64,000 bases of DNA from Vicinamibacterales bacterium (GTDB lineage: Bacteria; Acidobacteriota; Vicinamibacteria; Vicinamibacterales; UBA8438). The position numbers were made by a program, and so were the translations under genes. The DNA lies in the NCBI GenBank assembly GCA_029940535.1, contig JAPYUM010000014.1, positions 1,007 to 65,006 on the forward strand, written 5' to 3'. Of the stretch, positions 18,581-31,540 are shown in pieces; positions within the stretch are counted from its first letter, which is position 1, and every line of letters starts with the position of its first letter. The notes beneath the pieces are model-generated. The model made no database searches and was not told where the DNA came from. It saw only the letters and a program-made list of their open reading frames with translations.

Positions 18581-20449
18581 CTACCCCTTGGGCGTGCGTG
18601 CCTTGGGTCTGGTTGTCTTTCCGCGGCCGGCGGCTTTGCCCCCGGTCTTTTTCTGGTCCCACCATTTTGGTTCGCCAGCGACTTTCTTGTGCTTGTGGCG
18701 TGCCTTGGCCGGCCCGGTGGATTTCGCAAACCTGTGAGATGCCTTGGTGTGGTCGCCGTTCGGCCGTCCCGGTCCGGCGTCGGAGACGTCTCCGGTGTCG
18801 AGCTGAATCGCGAGTGCCTGCTGGAGGACCCGGACCCGTCGTAACCGCAGGAGCACCTCTCCCGGCAGGTTTGCCGGCAGCTCCACCGTGCTGTGGGTCT
18901 CGTCGAGTCGGACGCGGCCGATTGACTTGCCGGTGAACCCCGCCTCGTTGGCGAGCGCCCCAACGATGTGGCGTGCGGTGGCACCGTGCGCGCGCCCCAC
19001 CTGGATTCTGTAGCGTTCGACTCCGGTGTCGTCCGGGTGCGAGGACGACGATCCCCGCGGGCCCTGATGTCGCCTTTCTCGGCGCGGCGACGATGGCTTC
19101 GGCGGCGGCCCCTTGTCCGGTGGCGGTTGGAGCGGCCGCTCGCGTTGCAGTTGGAACGCCAGCACTGCCGCCGCGTCCTCAGTCGAGCACGCATTGTCGG
19201 CCGCGAAGTCTCGGATCAGTTGCCGAAAGAACTCGAGCTCCTCGTCGCTGGCCAGAATGGCCTGCATCTTTTCCTTGAACGCGCCTATTCGCCGTTCCGC
19301 GAGCTGCTTCCGGCCGGGCACCTCGAGCCATGCGATGGGCGACCGTGTCGCTCGCTCGATGGCACGCAGCAAGTGGCGCTCGCGTGAGGTGACGAACGTG
19401 ATGGCGGTGCCGCCGCGACCGGCCCGGCCAGTACGTCCAATGCGATGGATGTAGGCCTCGGCGTCGTAGGGGATGTCGTAGTTGATGACATGGCTGATGC
19501 GCGGCACGTCGATGCCGCGGGCCGCGACATCGGTCGCAATCAGAATGTCGAGTGTGCCGGCCCGGAACCGGCCGATGGTTCGCTCACGCGCCTGCTGGTT
19601 CATGTCGCCGTTGAGCGCGTCGCAGGCGAATCCCCGCGCTTCGATCCGTTCTACGAGTTCGACGGTGGCGGTCTTCGTCCGTACGAAGACCAGCATCCCG
19701 TCGAAGTCCGCGGTTTCCAGCAGTCGGGTGAGGGCGTCGAGCTTGTCTGGTCCGAGCACCAGGCAGGCCTGCTGCTCGGTATCGGTCACGGTCGCGGTTT
19801 CCGAGACGATGCGGACCTCGGCGGGCTTCCGCAGATACGTCTCGGCGACCGTGCGAATCCGGGTCGGCATGGTGGCCGAGAACAGTGCGGTCTGACGCGT
19901 GTCCGGGGTGTGACGCAGGATCCACTCGACGTCGTCGAGGAATCCCATGCGCAGCATCTCGTCGGCCTCGTCGAGCACCAGGGTGCGCAGCTCGTCGAGC
20001 ACGAGGCTGCCCCGGTTGAGGTGGTCCATGACCCGGCCCGGGGTGCCGACCACGGCGTGCACGCCACGACGAAGCTGACGGAGCTGTCCCGAGTACTCCT
20101 GTCCGCCATAGAGCGGCACGACGTGGAAGCCTTTCATCTGGCTGGCGTAGCGTTGGAACGCCTCCGAGACCTGGATGGCGAGCTCGCGGGTCGGGGCCAG
20201 CACCAGGATCTGGGGCTTCGCGAGGCTCAGGTCGACACGCGACAGCAACGGCAGCGCGAACGCCGCGGTCTTCCCGGTGCCGGTCTGGGCCATGCCGATC
20301 AGATCGCGTCCGGCCAGCAGGGGGGGGATGCTCTCCGCCTGGATCGGCGTGGGCTGTTCGTAGCCGATTCGCTCAATGGCGCTCAACACGGCTGGCGCCA
20401 GATCCAAGGCGGCAAATCCGGCTTGAGAGGTCGTGTCTTCTTGGTGCAC
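18581..20449 (-). CDS. deaD: DEAD-box ATP-dependent RNA helicase (DeaD/CsdA-like) with a DbpA-type RNA-binding domain and a basic tail
   Basis: 622 aa. AQTGTGKT (motif I), VLDEADEML (DEAD), SAT, HRIGRTGRAG. Lys/Arg-rich C-terminal tail. Confidence 0.9.
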   Translation of the reverse strand: MHQEDTTSQAGFAALDLAPAVLSAIERIGYEQPTPIQAESIPPLLAGRDLIGMAQTGTGKTAAFALPLLSRVDLSLAKPQILVLAPTRELAIQVSEAFQRYASQMKGFHVVPLYGGQEYSGQLRQLRRGVHAVVGTPGRVMDHLNRGSLVLDELRTLVLDEADEMLRMGFLDDVEWILRHTPDTRQTALFSATMPTRIRTVAETYLRKPAEVRIVSETATVTDTEQQACLVLGPDKLDALTRLLETADFDGMLVFVRTKTATVELVERIEARGFACDALNGDMNQQARERTIGRFRAGTLDILIATDVAARGIDVPRISHVINYDIPYDAEAYIHRIGRTGRAGRGGTAITFVTSRERHLLRAIERATRSPIAWLEVPGRKQLAERRIGAFKEKMQAILASDEELEFFRQLIRDFAADNACSTEDAAAVLAFQLQRERPLQPPPDKGPPPKPSSPRRERRHQGPRGSSSSHPDDTGVERYRIQVGRAHGATARHIVGALANEAGFTGKSIGRVRLDETHSTVELPANLPGEVLLRLRRVRVLQQALAIQLDTGDVSDAGPGRPNGDHTKASHRFAKSTGPAKARHKHKKVAGEPKWWDQKKTGGKAAGRGKTTRPKARTPKG

Positions 20450-21651: not shown

Positions 21652-23415
21652 ATGGACCTACACCGTTCCGTGTTCCGACCTGCCTCCGTGTCGCTTGCCG
21701 GAGTCGTGTTCTTGGCGCTGAGCGGCGTCCACGCCGTGGCCCAGTCCGCGGCACAGGAAGGTCAGTTCGTTCCTGTCACGGACGCCATGTTGCAGAACCC
21801 GTCGCCTGACGATTGGCTCATGTGGCGCAGGACGCTCGACGGCTGGGGGTACAGTCCGCTCGATCAGATCGACCGCGACAACGTGGGCGATCTGCAGATG
21901 GTCTGGACCCGGGCGCTGGCGCCCGGGGCTCAGGAGGGCACGCCCCTGGCCTACGGCGGCACGCTGTATATGCCGAATCCGAACGAAATAGTGCAGGCAA
22001 TCGACGCGGTTACCGGCGACCTGCGGTGGGAGTACCGACGCGACATTCCGGACGATGTCGCCGAGGTGATGGGTGGGCTGACCGAGAATAACCGGAACAT
22101 CTCGATTTACGGCAACCTCATAATCGACACGGCCAACGACGACTACATCTACGCCCTCGACGTGGGCACCGGCGAACTGGTCTGGGAAAATCAGATTTTT
22201 GACTATCGTGTCCATCCGGCGCGGCACTCGGCGGGCCCGATTGTCGCCAACGGGAAAGTGATCTCCGGGCGGAGCTGCCGGCCTCGAGCCGGGCCGGTGT
22301 CCTGTGTGATCCTCGCGCACGATGCGGTCACTGGCGAGGAGCTCTGGCAGACTCGCCTCATTCCGCGCCCGGGTGAGCCGGGTGATGAAACCTGGGGTGG
22401 CGTGCCCTACGAGGAGCGGATGCATGTCGGGTCGTGGATGGTACCGAGCTACGACCCCGAGTTGAATCTCGTCTATGTCGGCACTTCCGTCACGTCGCCG
22501 GCGCCGAAGTTCATGCTGGGCGGCCACGAGAACCGTCACCTGTATCACAACTCGACACTTGCCATTGACGGCGACACCGGCGAGATCCGGTGGTACTACC
22601 AGCACCTCAACGACCACTGGGATCTCGACCATCCCTACGAGCGGTTGTTGGTCGATACCGCGGTGACACCGGACGCGAGTGCGGTGTCCTGGATCAACCC
22701 GCGGCTGCGGCCGGGGGAGACTCGAAAGGTGATCACCGGCATTCCCGGCAAGACCGGCGTGGTCTACACGCTCGATCGGGAGACGGGGGAATTTCTCTGG
22801 GCGACGCCGACCGTTCCACAGAACGTCATCAGCAGCATCGACGGCGCGACCGGCGCGGTGACTGAGAACGCCGAGGTCGTCTTTACCGGGCTGGGGCAGG
22901 AGGTGGTGTCCTGTCCTTCCTGGGCTGGCGGCAAGAACTGGCCCGCCGGCGCCTATAGCCCGTTGACCAATACCATGTATTTTCCGCTCAAGCAGACCTG
23001 CGCACGGGTACTGTCGACGATGGACGGGGGGCTCGCCATCTATCGTCTGGCGGCCAGATTCGAGCTGCCACCAGGCGTTGAAAATCTTGGCACCGTGCGA
23101 GCGATCTCGGTCGAGACGGGGAAGACGAGCTGGTTGCACGAGCAACGCGCCGCCACTCACTCGTTGGTCGCCACCGGCGGGGGACTGGTGTTCGGGGGCG
23201 ACGGCAACGGGCGGTTCCGCGCCTTTGACCAGGAGACGGGCGAGGTGCTGTGGGAGATCAATCTCGGCTCGCCCGTCACTGGGTTTCCGATCACCTACGC
23301 GGTCGATGGACGGCAGTACGTGGTGGCGAGCACCGGGACTCGCACCGAGGGGCTCACCCCGGAACTGCGGCCGAGCGCCGGCAACAACCTGTTCGTCTTC
23401 GCCCTTCCGGACTAG
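21652..23415 (+). CDS. PQQ-dependent dehydrogenase, methanol/ethanol-family-like propeller, no cytochrome domain (PQQ-E)
   Basis: 587 aa, with signal peptide. [33 protein letters not shown]; repeated propeller W-motifs; ends FVFALPD. Confidence 0.85.
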   Translation: MDLHRSVFRPASVSLAGVVFLALSGVHAVAQSAAQEGQFVPVTDAMLQNPSPDDWLMWRRTLDGWGYSPLDQIDRDNVGDLQMVWTRALAPGAQEGTPLAYGGTLYMPNPNEIVQAIDAVTGDLRWEYRRDIPDDVAEVMGGLTENNRNISIYGNLIIDTANDDYIYALDVGTGELVWENQIFDYRVHPARHSAGPIVANGKVISGRSCRPRAGPVSCVILAHDAVTGEELWQTRLIPRPGEPGDETWGGVPYEERMHVGSWMVPSYDPELNLVYVGTSVTSPAPKFMLGGHENRHLYHNSTLAIDGDTGEIRWYYQHLNDHWDLDHPYERLLVDTAVTPDASAVSWINPRLRPGETRKVITGIPGKTGVVYTLDRETGEFLWATPTVPQNVISSIDGATGAVTENAEVVFTGLGQEVVSCPSWAGGKNWPAGAYSPLTNTMYFPLKQTCARVLSTMDGGLAIYRLAARFELPPGVENLGTVRAISVETGKTSWLHEQRAATHSLVATGGGLVFGGDGNGRFRAFDQETGEVLWEINLGSPVTGFPITYAVDGRQYVVASTGTRTEGLTPELRPSAGNNLFVFALPD

Positions 23416-24104
23416 TAATCGGCGGCTTCGACTCGCCGCAGGAGATCGATGGCCGTGGTCGCCGCCGCGCGCTCTCCGGAGCGAAGTTCGCGAGCCAGCA
23501 CGCCGGTGACGTTCGCCACCGCCAGGCTGAGACCACTCAGCTCGTTCGTTGGCGCCACTCCCGGCATCGGTCTCGGGTAGCCGGATGCGTGACACGTGGG
23601 CGGCCCGTCGTCACGGTCGTCGACCCTTACGTCCAGCCGCGGACATCCCCAGTCCAGTTCGACCGGGACGACGCCCGGCAGGCTCCCCGGCAGATAGTCG
23701 ACGCCATCATGCGCTCGAGCAGCGACGAGGAGCGCGCCGGCGCGGGACGCGTCCTCGACCGCCTGTCGCAACCGGCGTGCAGGGCCCGGCACCGTGGTCC
23801 CGAGACTGAGATTGATCAGGTCGACCTGTCGGCGAGCGGCCCAGACAATGGCCGAGACCAGGGTCTTCACCGGTGCCGTGAGGGCCCAATCGAACACCTT
23901 CACCACGAGCAATTCGGCCCCCGGCGCGCGCTCCTGTATGGCCGCGGAGACGGCCGTCCCGTGGCCGAGCCGATCGAAGTAGTCAGGAGAGGTCGAGCCG
24001 TCCGGTCTGATGGTCACGCCCATGGCGACCGGCCCGATCTGTGGGTGAGCGAGGCTCACACCACTGTCGATGACCGCCACGCGAACTGGCTCGTCTGGCA
24101 TCAC
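23412..24104 (-). CDS. Small signal-less subtilase (S8)-like protein, possibly with a degenerate oxyanion hole
   Basis: 230 aa. VAVIDSGV (Asp), GHGTAVS (His), INLSLG, and GLSLAVANVTG in place of GTSMAxPHVxG (Ser). The AAGN motif reads AARA. No signal peptide. Confidence 0.6.
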   Translation of the reverse strand: MMPDEPVRVAVIDSGVSLAHPQIGPVAMGVTIRPDGSTSPDYFDRLGHGTAVSAAIQERAPGAELLVVKVFDWALTAPVKTLVSAIVWAARRQVDLINLSLGTTVPGPARRLRQAVEDASRAGALLVAARAHDGVDYLPGSLPGVVPVELDWGCPRLDVRVDDRDDGPPTCHASGYPRPMPGVAPTNELSGLSLAVANVTGVLARELRSGERAAATTAIDLLRRVEAADY

Positions 24105-24164
24105 GGTCAGACGATGCTGGCTCCGGCACCGGCGAGAGGCGTCGGTCCCAGGGTGACCGGTGGG

Positions 24165-25775
24165 TTACGCGCCGACGAGCACGCCCATGCTGGCCGCCCG
24201 GCGCTCGAGAAACTCCGTGTAGGTGTAGTGGTGGTCCAGGAGGTCGTCCTCGGTGATCTCGATGACCCGGTTGCTCAGCGACTCGATCAGCTCGACGTCG
24301 TGCGACCCGAAGATGAGGGTGCCGGTACGTTTGGCCAGCGCGGTGTTCAGCGACGTAATCGATTCGAGGTCGAGGTGGTTGGTGGGGCCGTCCAGAATCA
24401 AGCACTGCGGGTCTTCGAGCATCAAGCGGGAAATCATGCATCGAACCCGTTCACCGCCGGACAGCACAGTCACGGACTTTCGTGACTCTTCACCGGTGAA
24501 CAGCATGCGGCCCAGGAACTGACGGATGAACCCTTCGTCTTTCTCGTCGCTGAACTGACGCAACCAGTCGATGACGCTGAGGTCCTTCTCGAACAGGTGT
24601 CCGTAGTCCTTCGGGAGAAATGAGCGTCGGATCGAATCACCCCAGAGTACGGTACCGGTGTCCGGCTCCTCCACCCCGGCGAGAATCTCCAGGAATGCCG
24701 TCACGGCCACGGAGTTTCGCGACACCACCACCACGCGTTCGTCCCGGCCGATCGTGAGGTTGACACCCTCGAACAGCCGTTGCCCACCGGCGGACTTCGA
24801 CAGGTTCTTCACGCTCAGCATCGCCTTCCCGTGGACCTTGGAGGCGTCGAACACGATGTGCGGGTATTTTCTCGATGAGGGCGCAATGGCCTCCACGTCG
24901 AGCTGGTTCAGCATTTTCTTGCGCGAGGTTGCCTGCTTCGACTTGGACGCATTGGCGCTGAACCGGGCGATGAATTCTTTGAGTTCGCGCGCCCGATCCT
25001 CGTTCTTGTCTTTCTTGGCCTGTCGGTGCCGAAGTGCGATCTCGCTGGCTTCGCGCCAGAAATCGTAGTTACCGGTGTACATCCGAACCTTCTGAAAATC
25101 GATGTCCGCGGTATGGGTGCATACCTTGTTCAGAAAGTGGCGGTCGTGCGAAACCACGATGACCGTGTTCTGAAACGAGAGCAGAAATTCCTCGAGCCAG
25201 AGAATCGAGTCGACGTCCAGGTGGTTCGTCGGCTCATCCAGCAGGAGGATGTCGGGGTCCCCGAACACCGCCTGAGCCAGCAGCACCCTGACCTTGTCAC
25301 CGTCGTCGAGATCGCGCACCAGGACCTCGTGGCGAGACACCGGAATGCCCAGTCCACCCAGGAGCTCGCCGGCCTGGGCTTCGGCCTCCCAGCCGTTCAG
25401 CTCGCCGAACTCCGCCTCCAACTCGGCCGCTCGCATGCCGTCGGTCTCATCGAAGTCCGACTTCGCATAGAGGGCGTCCTTTTCCTGCATGACGGCATAC
25501 AGGCGCTCGTGCCCCATCAGCACCGTCGTCAGTGCCTCGACGTCATTGAAGGCGAAATGGTCCTGCTTGAGGACGGCCAGGCGTAGACCCGGCGGGACGA
25601 TGACCTGCCCGGCGAACGGGTCGACGTCACCCGACAAGATCTTCAGCAGCGTGGACTTGCCGGCGCCGTTGGGCCCGATCAGGCCGTAGCAGTTGCCCTC
25701 GGTGAACTTGAGTGACACATCCTCGAAGAGGACGCGTTCCCCGTACTGGAGACATAGCCCTTGCGTACTAATCAT
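24165..25775 (-). CDS. ABC-F family ATPase (YbiT-like) with a degenerate second nucleotide-binding site
   Basis: 536 aa. NBD1 is canonical: GPNGAGKST and LLLDEPTNHLD. The linker RFSANASKSKQATSRKK is typical of ABC-F. In NBD2 the Walker A reads SRNSVAVT (no Gly-Lys), Walker B reads LILDGPTNHLD (Glu to Gly), and the LSGGE signature is intact. Confidence 0.88.
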   Translation of the reverse strand: MISTQGLCLQYGERVLFEDVSLKFTEGNCYGLIGPNGAGKSTLLKILSGDVDPFAGQVIVPPGLRLAVLKQDHFAFNDVEALTTVLMGHERLYAVMQEKDALYAKSDFDETDGMRAAELEAEFGELNGWEAEAQAGELLGGLGIPVSRHEVLVRDLDDGDKVRVLLAQAVFGDPDILLLDEPTNHLDVDSILWLEEFLLSFQNTVIVVSHDRHFLNKVCTHTADIDFQKVRMYTGNYDFWREASEIALRHRQAKKDKNEDRARELKEFIARFSANASKSKQATSRKKMLNQLDVEAIAPSSRKYPHIVFDASKVHGKAMLSVKNLSKSAGGQRLFEGVNLTIGRDERVVVVSRNSVAVTAFLEILAGVEEPDTGTVLWGDSIRRSFLPKDYGHLFEKDLSVIDWLRQFSDEKDEGFIRQFLGRMLFTGEESRKSVTVLSGGERVRCMISRLMLEDPQCLILDGPTNHLDLESITSLNTALAKRTGTLIFGSHDVELIESLSNRVIEITEDDLLDHHYTYTEFLERRAASMGVLVGA

Positions 25776-25837
25776 GATTTTCTGCCAGCTGTATCGAATG
25801 ATGCCCGACGTCTGGGTTGACCCGCGTCCGGCGTGAC

Positions 25838-27127
25838 CTACGCCTCGCCGTACGAGCGCTCGAACAGGTCCTCGATCGCCTGTCGGCCAGCATCAGTCAG
25901 AAACCGGGTTCCCGTGCCGGCAAAGCGAGTCCGATGGATCCGCAGCGCCTCCACCTCGGTCCAACGGTCGCCGGTCCAGCTAAACCACTGGAGCTTGGTC
26001 TGGTCATAGACAAACAACCGCTTCCGCAGGTGCTTGGCCAGCTCCGCTCCCCAGCCGGTCCCACCCTTGACCGTGTCGTCGTCGAGAATCTCTCCGATGA
26101 CGAACACTTCTCCGGCGGTCGACACTTGATGCCAGATCGACTTCAACAGCCGCTGAAACGTTGGAGTATCCGGAAACGACCGATGCAGCTGCGCGGTGAT
26201 GTAGGCCTCGCTGACGCTGCCTCGCTCGAGTTCCGCGTCAGACAGTTCGACGAGCCCTCGGCGGCGGGCTGGATCCCGTCCGGCAAACGAGAAATTGATC
26301 TCACTCAGCCCTCGGCGCTCCGCCGCGGCGCCAAACGCGGCCTCGGCCCCGTTGGCGCCGCCGGACAGGAGCGTGAATGCCCGAGGCGGTAGGGCAATCT
26401 CTGTCTCGGCCGCGCCATCCTCAACGAGACGCATCGTATCGGTGTGCAACTGCAGTGACGTATCCGCCGGCGGGTCCGTCTCGTGATCCTTGACGAGCCG
26501 CACACTGACATGCGTGCCCTCCGGCTCCAGAAAGACCCCGATGTCGATCACCTCGGCGTAGGCGGCGCAGGGTGGGGTGAGTGACGTGGGGTGCGCCGGG
26601 GTGACGTCGCGATGGGTCTGGGCCGACAGCCACAGCACCGCGCCCAGCCGCTTGGCCACGAGCTTCAGTGCGCCGAGTTCGGCGGCTCGCTCGACGACGG
26701 CTCCGGACTCCCAGTCCAGGCCATCGATGATGATCACGGCCGGCTTGAACCGTGCCCGGTCGTACAGCGTGACGATGTCCTCGAGACGCGCGTGGCCAAA
26801 GTCCGTGTCGGCCGATGCCTGGATCACCCGGTGCTCGTTGATCACCGCTCGTACCTGCTCACGGTCCTCGAGCTGGGTGGTGTGAGCCAGATCATCGAAC
26901 AGCGCGTCGTACCAGGACCGGACGTGTTCCAGGTCCTGTCCCAGGGCCACGTGGAGCACGGGCTGCTTCCGCATGGCGGCATCGAGTCCGACCTGCACCA
27001 GGAAGGCGGTTTTGCCGACACCGGCGCGCGCCATGACGACGCCCAGTTCGCCGGGCACCAGACCCCCGCGGCAGCAGCGCTCGAGGATGCGGATGGGACT
27101 GTTGTTGCTGACTTGTTCTGCGTACAT
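25838..27127 (-). CDS. RecA/KaiC-like P-loop ATPase fused to a C-terminal SLOG-like (YpsA/DUF2493/LOG-type) Rossmannoid domain
   Basis: 429 aa. N-terminal half: RGGLVPGELGVVMARAGVGKT (Walker A) and PAVIIIDGLD (Walker B), KaiC/RadA-like layout. C-terminal half: LLSGGANGAEAAFGAAAERRG and KGGTGWGAELAKHL, resembling the two Gly-rich SLOG motifs. Domain assignment is by motif only. Confidence 0.55.
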   Translation of the reverse strand: MYAEQVSNNSPIRILERCCRGGLVPGELGVVMARAGVGKTAFLVQVGLDAAMRKQPVLHVALGQDLEHVRSWYDALFDDLAHTTQLEDREQVRAVINEHRVIQASADTDFGHARLEDIVTLYDRARFKPAVIIIDGLDWESGAVVERAAELGALKLVAKRLGAVLWLSAQTHRDVTPAHPTSLTPPCAAYAEVIDIGVFLEPEGTHVSVRLVKDHETDPPADTSLQLHTDTMRLVEDGAAETEIALPPRAFTLLSGGANGAEAAFGAAAERRGLSEINFSFAGRDPARRRGLVELSDAELERGSVSEAYITAQLHRSFPDTPTFQRLLKSIWHQVSTAGEVFVIGEILDDDTVKGGTGWGAELAKHLRKRLFVYDQTKLQWFSWTGDRWTEVEALRIHRTRFAGTGTRFLTDAGRQAIEDLFERSYGEA

Positions 27128-27147
27128 CTGATTCTGCCCTCAGGACA

Positions 27148-29229
<2,082 letters not shown>

Positions 29230-29545
29230 GCTCTCTTACCTTTCGACACACAACGGTCGCATTCGCGAGTGCGATGAGCAACGGCACGCTGGCCGACCTG
29301 ACGGCCGCCAGCCCTGAGGGCACTTTTCTGAGCCGTGTCCTCAGCACATCAGCGTCCGCCCACCGAGTGGGCAACGCCGGGGCAATTTCCGATGGATGCG
29401 GGGCCCTCGAATTCAACCGGCGCGGGACGCGCGGCACGATTCACGGGCGAGGGCCCAAAACTCACATGCGGGGATGCGGATCACCGTCGCACAGTCTCAC
29501 AGTGTACCTCAATCAGAGCCGAAGAGGTAGACAGGTGTTCAGCCA

Positions 29546-31540
29546 TCACTCCGGCAAGGCGAACGCCCAGAACCCCAGACCAGACGCGATCGCGACATAC
29601 TGTCGCCCGCCGACCATGTAGGTCATCGGCGACGCCTTCCAGTCTTGATTGGCTTGGAAGTGCCACAACGGTTCGCCGGTGCGAGCGTCGAGCGCGGCAA
29701 ACGCGCCGCTGTCTTCCCCGAAGAACACCAGGTCACCAGCGGTCGACAGCACGCCGGAATACGTCTGCGCCTTCCCCGTCTGCGCGTAGCTCCAGGCGAC
29801 ATCGCCGGTCTGGATGTCGATGGCTCGGATGAACTTCTGGTTGGGCGAGCCCTCCGCGAGGCGCACCGACCCACCCAGCCAGCTTCGGCCGCGTTGCCAG
29901 TCCTGATCGTTCTTGGTGTAGGTCATACACGACTCGTGGGCGAGCAGGTAGAACAGCTTGGTCCCGGGGTGATAACTGGTCGCCCACCAGTTGGTGGCGC
30001 CGCGAATGGCGGGGCAGACGTCCGACCCGGTGTCGGTCGGGTCCGTCCCCGGCAACACGATGGGGCGGCCGCTGTCGTCCATGCCCTCGGCCCAGGTCTG
30101 ATTGACGAACGGCTCACCCAGCAGGAACTGCCCGGTGGTACGGTCGAGCACGTAGAAGAACCCGTTGCGGTTGCCTTGCACCAGCAGCTTGCGCGGCCGG
30201 CCCTGGAACTCTTCGTCAATCAGCAGCAGCGGTTCCTGGGCGTCCCAGTCGTGGGTGTCGTGGGGGGTGAACTGGAAATACCAATCGAGCGTACCCGTGG
30301 CTGGCTCCAAGGCGAGCACGGAATTCGTATAGAGGTTGTCCCCCGGGCGTCGCTCGCCGTTGAGATCCGGACAGGGGTTGCCGGTCGACCAGTAGAGCCG
30401 GTCGAGTTCGGCGTCGTAGCTTCCGGTGAGCCAGGTCGCGCCGCAGCCGCGCGCCATCACCGCCGGGTCACCCCAGGTCTCAGACCCGGGTTCGCCGGGA
30501 CCGGGGATGGTCCAGAACCGCCAGGCCCGCTCGCCCGTGTCGGCATGATAGGCGTCGAGGAAGCCCCGGAGGCCGGTGTCGCCGGCGCTGACTCCCGCAA
30601 TGACGAGGTCGTTCACCACCAGCGGGGCCGCCACCGCGCCATAGTGGTCGTAGGAGTCGGCCATTTCGGTGTCCCAGACGAGCGCCCCGGTGAACCGGTC
30701 GAGGGCGATGACGTGCGCGTGGTCGGTGACCGTAAACAGCAGGTCCCCGCGCACCGCGACACCGCGATTGAGCCCGATGGCAGGATCACCGACCAGACCC
30801 TCGGTGCGGGGCTGTGAATAGCGCCAGAACTCGCGGCCCGTCGTGGCATCGAGGGCGTAGACCTGGTTCGGGGCGGTCACATACATGACGCCGGCGATCA
30901 CCACCGGGGTGCCCTCGATCATCGGCATGTCCGGAATCGGAAAGAACCACTGGACGGCCAGTTGGTCCACGGTGTTGCGGTCGATCTGATCGAGGAGACT
31001 GTGTCGATTCGACGTGTCGCTCCCGTTGTAGGATGCCCAGTCGACGGACGGATGGATGTCGTCCTCTCGGTATGCCTCTCCGGCTCGCCGAAGCAAGTGG
31101 AGGCTGCCATCGTCCGTCCGAATCTGCGCGTCGAAGCCGCTTTCGTTCAGGATGGTGCCGCTGAGGGCGGTGCCGGCGATCAGGCTGAGGGTCCCCTGCC
31201 GTGGTCGTGGGGCACGCGGGTCGAGAGCGCCGGGGGAAGCTGCGGCGGCCAGCGTCTTCAAATAGGTGACGAGCGGGCCCAATTCCTCGACCGGGACCTC
31301 GATCGCCGGCATCCCTTTCGAGGCGACACCGTCCGTGATGATGGTGGCCAGTCGGTCGGTCGCGCTGGTCTGCAGCGTCGGGATGATCGAGGGGGCTCGG
31401 TCCGTGCCCTCGGCGTCACTGCCGTGGCAGAGTGCGCAGCGGGTCTGATACGACTCCGCGCCTTGAGCCGCGGTCAGACCTGGTGCCGACAGGAGCAGCA
31501 GCGACGTAACAGTCACCGTAGCGGAGAGTGAGGATTTCAT
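29546..31540 (-). CDS. Quinohaemoprotein: N-terminal cytochrome c domain plus PQQ propeller (PQQ-G)
   Basis: 664 aa. Signal peptide, haem motif CALCHG near the N-terminus, then DWASYNGSDTSNRHSLLDQIDRNTVDQLAVQW and propeller repeats. Ends AFALPE. Confidence 0.85.
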   Translation of the reverse strand: MKSSLSATVTVTSLLLLSAPGLTAAQGAESYQTRCALCHGSDAEGTDRAPSIIPTLQTSATDRLATIITDGVASKGMPAIEVPVEELGPLVTYLKTLAAAASPGALDPRAPRPRQGTLSLIAGTALSGTILNESGFDAQIRTDDGSLHLLRRAGEAYREDDIHPSVDWASYNGSDTSNRHSLLDQIDRNTVDQLAVQWFFPIPDMPMIEGTPVVIAGVMYVTAPNQVYALDATTGREFWRYSQPRTEGLVGDPAIGLNRGVAVRGDLLFTVTDHAHVIALDRFTGALVWDTEMADSYDHYGAVAAPLVVNDLVIAGVSAGDTGLRGFLDAYHADTGERAWRFWTIPGPGEPGSETWGDPAVMARGCGATWLTGSYDAELDRLYWSTGNPCPDLNGERRPGDNLYTNSVLALEPATGTLDWYFQFTPHDTHDWDAQEPLLLIDEEFQGRPRKLLVQGNRNGFFYVLDRTTGQFLLGEPFVNQTWAEGMDDSGRPIVLPGTDPTDTGSDVCPAIRGATNWWATSYHPGTKLFYLLAHESCMTYTKNDQDWQRGRSWLGGSVRLAEGSPNQKFIRAIDIQTGDVAWSYAQTGKAQTYSGVLSTAGDLVFFGEDSGAFAALDARTGEPLWHFQANQDWKASPMTYMVGGRQYVAIASGLGFWAFALPE

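Follow-up and report, generated by a model that had tools for sequence, protein, structure and literature searches.

What does a protein that joins a RecA-like module to a SLOG-type domain do in the cell, and with which partner does it work? The question is raised by a gene at positions 25838 to 27127 of a 64,000-nucleotide stretch of contig JAPYUM010000014.1 from a Vicinamibacterales bacterium; the whole stretch is called the window below, and the gene the target gene. A reading made without database searches (the sequence-only reading) had recognized both halves of the product and had suggested a signalling or defence switch. We found that the target gene forms a tight, co-directional pair with a gene for elongation factor G (EF-G), and that this pair is conserved in at least four phyla and specific to one EF-G subfamily. 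A role as an EF-G partner was judged likelier than one as an immune switch, because the target gene was almost always located directly behind a mitochondrial-type copy of EF-G. Our interpretation, to which we assign a probability of roughly 0.5, is that the alternative translocase spdEFG1 has in the target protein a dedicated partner, co-expressed with it and responsive to a nucleotide or other ligand. The linkage is observed, and the mechanism is deduced from it. The pair in the window consists of the following elements (nt, nucleotides; aa, amino acids).

25838..27127, minus strand: target gene, with an ATG start and a TAG stop, 429 aa
27128..27147, minus strand: EF-G/target junction of 20 nt, with a Shine-Dalgarno-like GAGGG 9 nt before the ATG
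27148..29229, minus strand: partner EF-G gene, five-domain, 693 aa, spdEFG1/mitochondrial-EFG1-like (TIGR00484, 960 bits; all five Pfam EF-G domains)

In three divergent homologs located on long contigs, EF-G was the immediate upstream gene and all other neighbours differed. In a tblastn survey of 88 homolog loci, 87 had a co-directional EF-G gene immediately before the target gene, and the remaining locus had just 90 nt of upstream sequence. The distance from the EF-G stop to the target start had a median of 14 nt over 90 related loci, and several pairs overlapped by 1–4 nt. The identity of the target protein tracked that of its EF-G neighbour (Pearson r = 0.74, n = 74 loci), which is compatible with inheritance of the two by joint vertical descent. 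In the window, no terminator-like site was found on the minus strand within 23900–29700 by a promoter and terminator scan that was otherwise unhelpful. One metagenomic protein of 738 aa (P0139) carried an EF-G G-domain at aa 1–296, 44% identical to the EF-G of the window, fused to a complete target protein at aa 310–735; this single case may be a genuine Rosetta-stone fusion, or else a deletion or assembly artefact.

The target gene itself is a genuine gene and not a chance open reading frame (ORF), because a 90%-clustered database contained 1,103 homologs at E ≤ 1e-3, the majority of them full length, and an exhaustive search of 50%-identity representatives gave 1,806 clusters of relatives. 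The best 120 homologs in the 90%-clustered database were all essentially full length, with 57–95% identity. In a scan of one genome per species, relatives of the target gene were present in at least 590 species genomes; the best 80 of the target-bearing genomes belonged mostly to Acidobacteriota (Vicinamibacterales and others) and Myxococcota, and cultured Sorangium, Polyangium, and Anaeromyxobacter were among them. The closest named fused relative (L010) also belongs to Vicinamibacterales. The gene was single-copy and chromosomal, with housekeeping surroundings and unremarkable base composition; the GC fractions at its three codon positions (0.71/0.46/0.80) were usual for coding sequence in this 65% GC window. 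A 186-aa ORF on the opposite strand (26591–27151, plus strand) was rejected as an antisense artefact of a kind common in high-GC DNA. Database names of the homologs were limited to "hypothetical protein" and the generic Joint Genome Institute (JGI) name "KaiC/GvpD/RAD55 family RecA-like ATPase."

To which class does the partner EF-G belong? Margus 2011 distinguished four EF-G subfamilies, in which a three-residue "KDG" insertion in switch I is diagnostic of spdEFG1, the bacterial sister of mitochondrial EFG1 (PMC3150367). Switch I of the window EF-G carries this insertion, reading GKDG. An insertion of the KDG type was detected in all 77 partner EF-Gs whose N-terminus lay on the contig, as G[KR]DG in 72 of them and as variants of the same length in the other 5. 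Neither rpsL nor rpsG was present in the window or in any of the loci, and therefore the partner is not the fusA of the str operon. According to the supplement of Atkinson 2015 (PMC4342817), Anaeromyxobacter has a canonical EFG beside EF-Tu together with spdEFG1, spdEFG2, and EFGII, and Sorangium has EFG, EFGII, and spdEFG1; Myxococcota with the partner EF-G also possess an EFG of the str operon. The candidate identity of the partner as the main fusA of the cell was thus ruled out by the KDG insertion, the absence of rpsL and rpsG, and the published paralog tables. Since these tables show a canonical EFG plus spdEFG1 in the same genera, the partner EF-G is an accessory paralog with the characters of spdEFG1, namely the KDG insertion, a location outside the str operon, and five domains.

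In a few loci the partner gene was interrupted or appeared to be damaged. In Ca. Marinacidobacterales (L016; OZ253507.1, 2591–5354), spdEFG1 was split by an insert of approximately 2.7 kb encoding an IS1595 transposase, an N6/N4 DNA methylase, and a restriction endonuclease of the MvaI/BcnI type, and the downstream target gene was intact. The insert looks like a mobile restriction-modification cassette inside an EF-G paralog, and this disruption is consistent with the accessory status of the partner. In another locus (L008), the only call for a gene with an EF-G domain was a 94-aa EFG_C fragment, and tblastn recovered EF-G residues 531–691 only; in a third (L061), tblastn gave two overlapping EF-G pieces in different frames. 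These two apparently fragmented or frameshifted EF-Gs may represent pseudogenes or long-read assembly errors.

Could the adjacency be passive synteny, with the target protein serving a role unrelated to its neighbour? Gene order is the sole evidence for coupling, and in the Marinacidobacterales locus the target outlasted a broken EF-G. Set against this, the pair was the one stable element of a changing neighbourhood in Acidobacteriota, Myxococcota, Eisenbacteria, and Latescibacterota, the median gap of 14 nt and the overlaps were typical of translational coupling, and the pairing was restricted to one EF-G subfamily. We therefore regard synteny without functional coupling as quite improbable.

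The next question is which half of the protein carries the link with EF-G. The target protein is composed of two modules, a RecA-like one at aa 1–235 and a SLOG-type one at aa 250–429, with the following features.

26423..27127, minus strand: RecA-superfamily P-loop module binding nucleoside triphosphate (NTP), DnaB/gp4/RadA/KaiC type (aa 1–235)
27008..27031, minus strand: Walker A, ARAGVGKT (aa 33–40)
26714..26737, minus strand: Walker B strand, VIIIDGLD (aa 131–138), aligned with the helicase Walker B strand
26381..26422, minus strand: inter-domain linker (aa 236–249), variable and gapped in the 51-member alignment
25841..26380, minus strand: SLOG-type Rossmannoid domain, on the YpsA/cpYpsA/DprA-like side, with a Trp-rich beta-hairpin insert (aa 250–429)
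26309..26371, minus strand: first glycine-rich loop LLSGGANGAEAAFGAAAERRG (aa 253–273), with the GxD/E motif G260-A-E262
26027..26068, minus strand: second glycine-rich loop KGGTGWGAELAKHL (aa 354–367), with GGxGxxxE spacing

Each module was also encountered without the other. A family of proteins of approximately 233 aa with the RecA-like module only (hereafter N-only) comprised 260 detected members in Candidatus Eisenbacteria, Latescibacterota, and Terriglobia/Acidobacteriota (P0221 and P0271–P0389; loci L090, L092, and L095–L100), all annotated "hypothetical." In 4 of 4 testable clusters, an EF-G of 694–702 aa was located directly upstream of the N-only gene, overlapping it or at most 16 nt away, and the KDG insertion was present in all three readable EF-Gs of these loci (L090, L092, and L095). 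A standalone C-domain family of approximately 187 aa, which includes Vicinamibacterales, gave 6,929 matches, with 75–92% identity in the top 120 (P0203 and P0390–P0508; loci L089, L094, and L103–L106). No EF-G was found near the standalone genes in the 4 clusters examined. In three of these clusters the neighbours were a convergent (tail-to-tail) RarA/MgsA gene, a SpoU methylase, and GreA, with MutL and CorA nearby; in the fourth the gene lay between an arginase and a TetR regulator. Two JGI entries oddly name the standalone protein "ribosomal protein L20A (L18A)." Neither the N-only nor the standalone family reached the threshold of any Pfam or NCBIfam family. Because the N-only forms keep the EF-G pairing and the standalone C-domains do not, the conserved unit is spdEFG1 plus the RecA-like module, and the SLOG-type domain is an autonomous module fused on in the type found in Vicinamibacterales and Myxococcota.

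What is the RecA-like module? The ORF and all of the motifs singled out by the sequence-only reading were present, namely RGGLVPGELGVV at aa 20–31, the two Walker motifs, and the two glycine-rich loops, and these proved to be the conserved ones. Residue conservation in the fused form was assessed from an alignment of 51 diverse members. A profile of these members matched T4 gp41 helicase (E 2e-11), RadA (1e-5), and KaiC (1e-3) in the Protein Data Bank (PDB), and in PHROGs the DnaB-like helicase family phrog_19 matched the module at E 3e-15. An AlphaFold2 model of the full-length target protein had a predicted local distance difference test score (pLDDT) of 85.6, falling to 66–70 in 10-residue blocks around the linker (aa 231–250), and Foldseek against the PDB aligned it with KaiC, RAD51 paralogs, T4 gp41, and T7 gp4 at E ~1e-11 and probability 1.0. 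The KaiC/RadA-type layout that had been proposed for the N-terminal half was therefore borne out. A KaiC-like double domain was rejected, since the "full-length" KaiC alignments in Foldseek had a root mean square deviation of ~17 Å and provide no evidence for it.

The curated models placed the module within the superfamily and outside its named families. Pfam AAA_25 scored just above its cut-off (1.3e-6; 28.6 bits versus 27), and DnaB_C (18.4 versus 27 bits) and KaiC (14.6 versus 26.6 bits) were below theirs. The NCBIfam models TIGR00416 RadA (18.5 versus 403) and TIGR00665 DnaB (14.4 versus 385) were far under cut-off, as was the KaiC match in NCBIfam. The fold and strand order were the same as in the hexameric helicases and their relatives (T4 gp41, T7 gp4, the DnaB C-domain, RadA/Sms, and KaiC), with which the module has in common Walker A (GVGKT), an acidic Walker B strand, and a Q/H/R-containing strand after beta-4. 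However, the target protein has a single RecA-like module of ~235 aa and lacks the DnaB N-domain, the zinc finger and Lon-like domain of RadA, and the duplication of KaiC, and its gene context is translation, compared with replication for the helicases. Because the curated cut-offs were not reached and the family architecture was absent, the module is a member of the RecA superfamily that is not DnaB, RadA, or KaiC proper.

The Walker A residues G36, G38, and K39 were 94–100% conserved in fused and N-only forms alike. Walker B D135 was conserved in 94% of fused forms; in N-only forms the commonest residue in this column was Glu, at 40% only. The catalytic Glu of the helicases (DnaB motif H1a "SLEM"; gp41 E227, "ISMEM") aligned with the family sequence "valgq," and the target protein reads A-L-G63-Q-D65 there, with Gly at the canonical position. 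This position was occupied by G, R, T, Q, or S in fused forms and by Asp in N-only forms, and an Asp or Glu was often found one to two residues away. An outright inactive ATPase was considered, and this reading was softened because an acidic residue so often adjoins the canonical position. The residues suggest that NTP binding is likely and vigorous hydrolysis doubtful; with the canonical Glu position so variable, hydrolysis may be weak, although a neighbouring acid might stand in for the Glu. The conserved R100 and R173 are candidate trans-acting residues.

For the C-terminal module, neither sequence nor profile searches gave a PDB match, no Pfam model reached threshold, NCBIfam returned nothing, and structure comparison provided the only lead. 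RecA-fold matches crowded out all others when the full-length model was submitted to Foldseek, and the C-domain was therefore modelled separately (pLDDT 93; predicted template modelling score 0.90). The sole PDB match above generic Rossmann dehydrogenases was 3imk (E 5e-3, probability 1.0, template modelling (TM) score 0.53/0.61), a putative molybdenum-carrier ("MoCo carrier") protein of the cpYpsA family of SLOG. The only Pfam family to recur was YAcAr (PF10686), which aligned over the first glycine-rich loop at 12.7–14 bits for the window protein against a gathering threshold of 28.2; the best family member (P0060) reached 25.3 bits, and 4 of the 51 members matched at E < 0.1. In PHROGs, the "DprA-like" family phrog_768 matched the C-domain at E 1e-4. 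The DprA and LOG models of Pfam and NCBIfam and the Lysine_decarbox profile did not match the target protein. Pfam D5_N recurred just below cut-off on aa 363–396 (21.7 bits); it covers ~30 residues of the Trp-rich hairpin and was dismissed as chance or local similarity.

Conservation was concentrated in this half. All 17 invariant columns of the alignment fell in the C-module, and the invariant residues included G260, E262, F265, G266, G355-G356-T357-G358-W359, W381, and G406; E362 was at least 90% conserved. Mean identity to the window protein was 57% in the C-half versus 47% in the N-half. GxD/E is the predicted substrate-binding motif of the YpsA clade (PMC6459960), and the corresponding G260-A-E262 was invariant in the 51 diverse members. 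The C-module shares with this clade (cpYpsA 3imk, YAcAr PF10686, and YpsA) the Rossmannoid fold, the GxD/E motif, and the YAcAr matches over the first loop. It differs in having an extra Trp-rich beta-hairpin and a conserved C-terminal GTGTR strand, and in having no conflict-system neighbours. In the C-domain model, the second glycine-rich loop comes after the central strand and opens a helix. The LOG family (cytokinin-riboside 5'-monophosphate phosphoribohydrolase and PpnN-type N-glycosidases) likewise carries a glycine-rich loop where each of two strands, beta-1 and the central one, ends on its C-terminal side, and its motif is PGGxGTxxE. The second loop of the target protein (GGTGWGAE) retains the spacing of this motif with Trp in place of Thr, and no LOG profile matched. 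The C-module is SLOG-like at the superfamily level, with moderate support, as had been proposed from the sequence; the 3imk match, the sub-threshold YAcAr scores, phrog_768, and the invariant GxD/E agree on this. Below every curated family threshold, the C-domain is an uncatalogued family.

The strength of this conservation raises the question of whether the module is an enzyme. A sharper form of the proposed partnership would have the SLOG domain catalyse an NAD+/ADP-ribose-type or LOG-like N-glycosidase reaction and the RecA-like module direct it, so that spdEFG1 or the ribosome is modified or de-modified. The pocket loops are invariant, including the acidic E262, with E362 besides; GGxGxxxE is spaced as in the LOG catalytic motif, and conservation of the C-half (57% versus 47% for the N-half) is above what a simple sensor would be expected to show. 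YAcAr and YpsA-clade domains are predicted to use NAD+ or ADP-ribose (PMC7824862; PMC6459960). However, the close relatives have no known catalytic activity and Pfam LOG did not match. An enzymatic part is also not needed for the pairing, because the N-only lineages keep EF-G without a fused SLOG. We consider a modifying enzyme unlikely, with some chance left to it.

Relatives of the C-domain were also found in phages. Foldseek against predicted viral structures (BFVD) gave uncharacterized proteins of Agrobacterium jumbo phage Atu_ph07 and domains within giant proteins of crAss-like phages (TM score ~0.8, E down to 3.5e-14), with DprA-like and MoCo-carrier proteins lower among the matches, and tblastn detected relatives in jumbo and crAss-like phages at E down to 2e-15. 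The jumbo phages were Atu_ph07 (gp133; L101), CBB, GAP32, Phosso, XaC1, and uncultured phages of 460–735 kb. Further relatives lay within giant proteins of crAss-like phages and within the "virion RNA polymerase" of Klebsiella phage Pylas; some were parts of polyvalent proteins, and one of the phage relatives was a helicase fusion. RefSeq names several of these relatives "DprA-like DNA recombination-mediator protein." The phage "DprA-like" proteins (phrog_768; Atu_ph07 gp133) are homologous in sequence to the C-domain, with a TM score of 0.80 over the whole domain. However, their identity to it is 25–35%, the phage protein itself matched no Pfam DprA model, and "DprA-like" is an annotation name only. 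Bona fide DprA, unlike the C-domain, has additional domains and a role in transformation. Two further observations were made in these phages. In Atu_ph07, the gene was one gene away from an NAD synthetase gene. In crAss-like phage cr113_1 (L102), the giant coding sequence KNV54_gp38 contained 6 in-frame stops in ~900 nt when read in the correct frame with table 11, and these in-frame stops suggest stop-codon reassignment in this phage; its C-domain relative was set aside for this reason.

The named relatives of both modules raise the possibility of a mediator of DNA recombination or repair, in which the RadA/DnaB-like module and the DprA-like domain would bind single-stranded DNA and aid strand exchange or replication restart, the adjacency to EF-G being incidental. 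The best named relatives of the N-module are replicative helicases and RadA, the C-module matches phrog_768, whose name "DprA-like DNA recombination-mediator protein" RefSeq also gives to phage relatives of the module, a helicase fusion is among these relatives, and the standalone paralog adjoins RarA/MgsA near MutL. This possibility is difficult to reconcile with the presence of EF-G beside 87 of the 88 fused genes and in all 4 testable N-only clusters; no DNA-metabolism gene recurs beside the fused gene. In addition, the scores are well under the RadA, DnaB, and KaiC cut-offs (18.5 versus 403, 18.4 versus 27, and 14.6 versus 26.6), Pfam DprA does not match at all, and the position of the catalytic Glu of the helicases is variable. 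RarA and the standalone paralog converge on each other, and hence the two share no operon. A role in DNA metabolism is accordingly a minor possibility in our judgement.

Does the protein instead sense nucleotide signals, or act as a switch, in a system of anti-phage defence or other conflict, as the sequence-only reading had suggested? SLOG domains do occur in conflict systems (PMC6459960), and jumbo and crAss-like phages encode relatives of the C-domain, in some cases within polyvalent proteins. However, PADLOC detected 0 families, and no effector, nucleotide cyclase, or mobile element recurred among neighbours that were ordinary chromosomal genes. The gene occurs once per genome, in housekeeping surroundings, in at least 590 species genomes; it is vertically inherited, diverges with taxonomy and in step with its EF-G neighbour (r = 0.74), and is unremarkable in base composition. 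Profiling of the neighbourhood, which that reading had proposed, disclosed the conserved upstream EF-G (87 of 88 loci) in the place of defence genes. A defence function is thus very improbable. The domain-level description in the sequence-only reading held, its guess at function did not, and the conserved EF-G operon context had been missed.

How might a partner of spdEFG1 work? The target protein and spdEFG1 would be made together from one mRNA. The RecA-like module would bind an NTP, ATP or a different one, probably between the subunits of an oligomer, and would contact spdEFG1 or the ribosome. In the Vicinamibacterales type of Acidobacteriota and in Myxococcota, the pocket of the fused SLOG domain would bind or process a nucleotide or a derivative of one, with NAD+/ADP-ribose-type compounds, purine nucleotides, and alarmones as candidate ligands. 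In this way, the nucleotide or stress state of the cell would govern how active or how available the alternative translocase is. Any specific ligand or direction of regulation is much less probable than the partnership itself. When the operon was scanned against Rfam together with its leader of 316 nt, the only match was a chance one to an antisense RNA (E 0.28), and hence there was no riboswitch clue to the ligand.

In a more specific form, which we put forward tentatively, the RecA-like protein, with or without SLOG, would be an unrecognized accessory factor of the spdEFG1/mtEFG1 type of translocase, NTP-bound, possibly oligomeric, and binding EF-G or the ribosome. A nucleotide-derived ligand held by the SLOG pocket would, in Acidobacteriota and Myxococcota, be the signal to which the protein responds by gating or modifying spdEFG1. 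FusB-type factors are EF-G-binding accessory proteins and offer a precedent for a dedicated small protein that tunes EF-G, as proposed here; they differ from the target protein in their unrelated fold and their resistance context. The literature searched described no accessory protein of spdEFG1.

Several points weigh against a partnership with spdEFG1. The link between EF-G and the target gene is one of gene order, and the correlated divergence (r = 0.74) could be given by shared vertical descent alone. Among named proteins, those most closely related to the two modules belong to DNA metabolism (DnaB-type helicases, RadA, and DprA) and would fit a DNA role better than one in translation. The SLOG assignment is made from one moderate PDB match (TM score 0.53/0.61, E 5e-3) together with sub-threshold profile matches. 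The pairing counts cover the 88 fused loci and the four testable N-only clusters. Finally, the target protein may function without its partner, because in L016 the EF-G is disrupted and the target is intact.

Beyond the conserved pair, the window contained a further gene related to translation, located 62 nt downstream of the target gene.

24165..25775, minus strand: ABC-F ATPase gene (NF011646, 635 bits)

Among the 88 loci, an ABC-F gene downstream was seen only in the closest relative (L009), and it is a lineage-specific neighbour outside the conserved pair. Because the genes are on the same strand and no terminator separates the target gene from ABC-F, spdEFG1, the target gene, and ABC-F may form a translation-related operon in this lineage. 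The flanking genes at 18581–20449 (minus strand), 21652–23415 (plus strand), and 29546–31540 (minus strand) appeared by eye to encode a DEAD-box RNA helicase with a long basic C-terminal tail and two pyrroloquinoline quinone (PQQ)-dependent dehydrogenases, one of which opens with a haem-binding CxxCH motif. These DEAD-box and dehydrogenase genes were not kept beside the pair in other lineages.

Both folds of the target protein are known, and the fusion itself is without prior description in the literature searched. Searches for an association of EF-G with a RecA-like or SLOG protein returned no description of one, and the papers that mention spdEFG1 were silent on its neighbour. The earlier view that the fusion is not a characterized protein stands; neither half reached a curated cut-off for DnaB, RadA, KaiC, or any family of the C-half.

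The findings expose two sizeable unannotated families, the RecA-like partner of ~233 aa (260 members) and the standalone SLOG-like protein of ~187 aa (~6,900 matches), and even if the link with EF-G were incidental, they would allow two uncatalogued domain families to be annotated correctly. They also place a SLOG-type pocket domain, usually tied to conflict systems and DNA uptake, beside the translation machinery. EF-G paralogs are widespread, and their purpose is largely obscure outside the organisms in which spdEFG1 and spdEFG2 replace EF-G. A near-invariant gene behind spdEFG1 in several phyla provides a concrete and testable handle on this purpose, with Anaeromyxobacter, Sorangium, and Polyangium as cultured hosts. 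If the proposed partnership is true, these proteins would constitute a new class of translation-factor regulators and would help to explain why spdEFG1 is retained beside the canonical EF-G.

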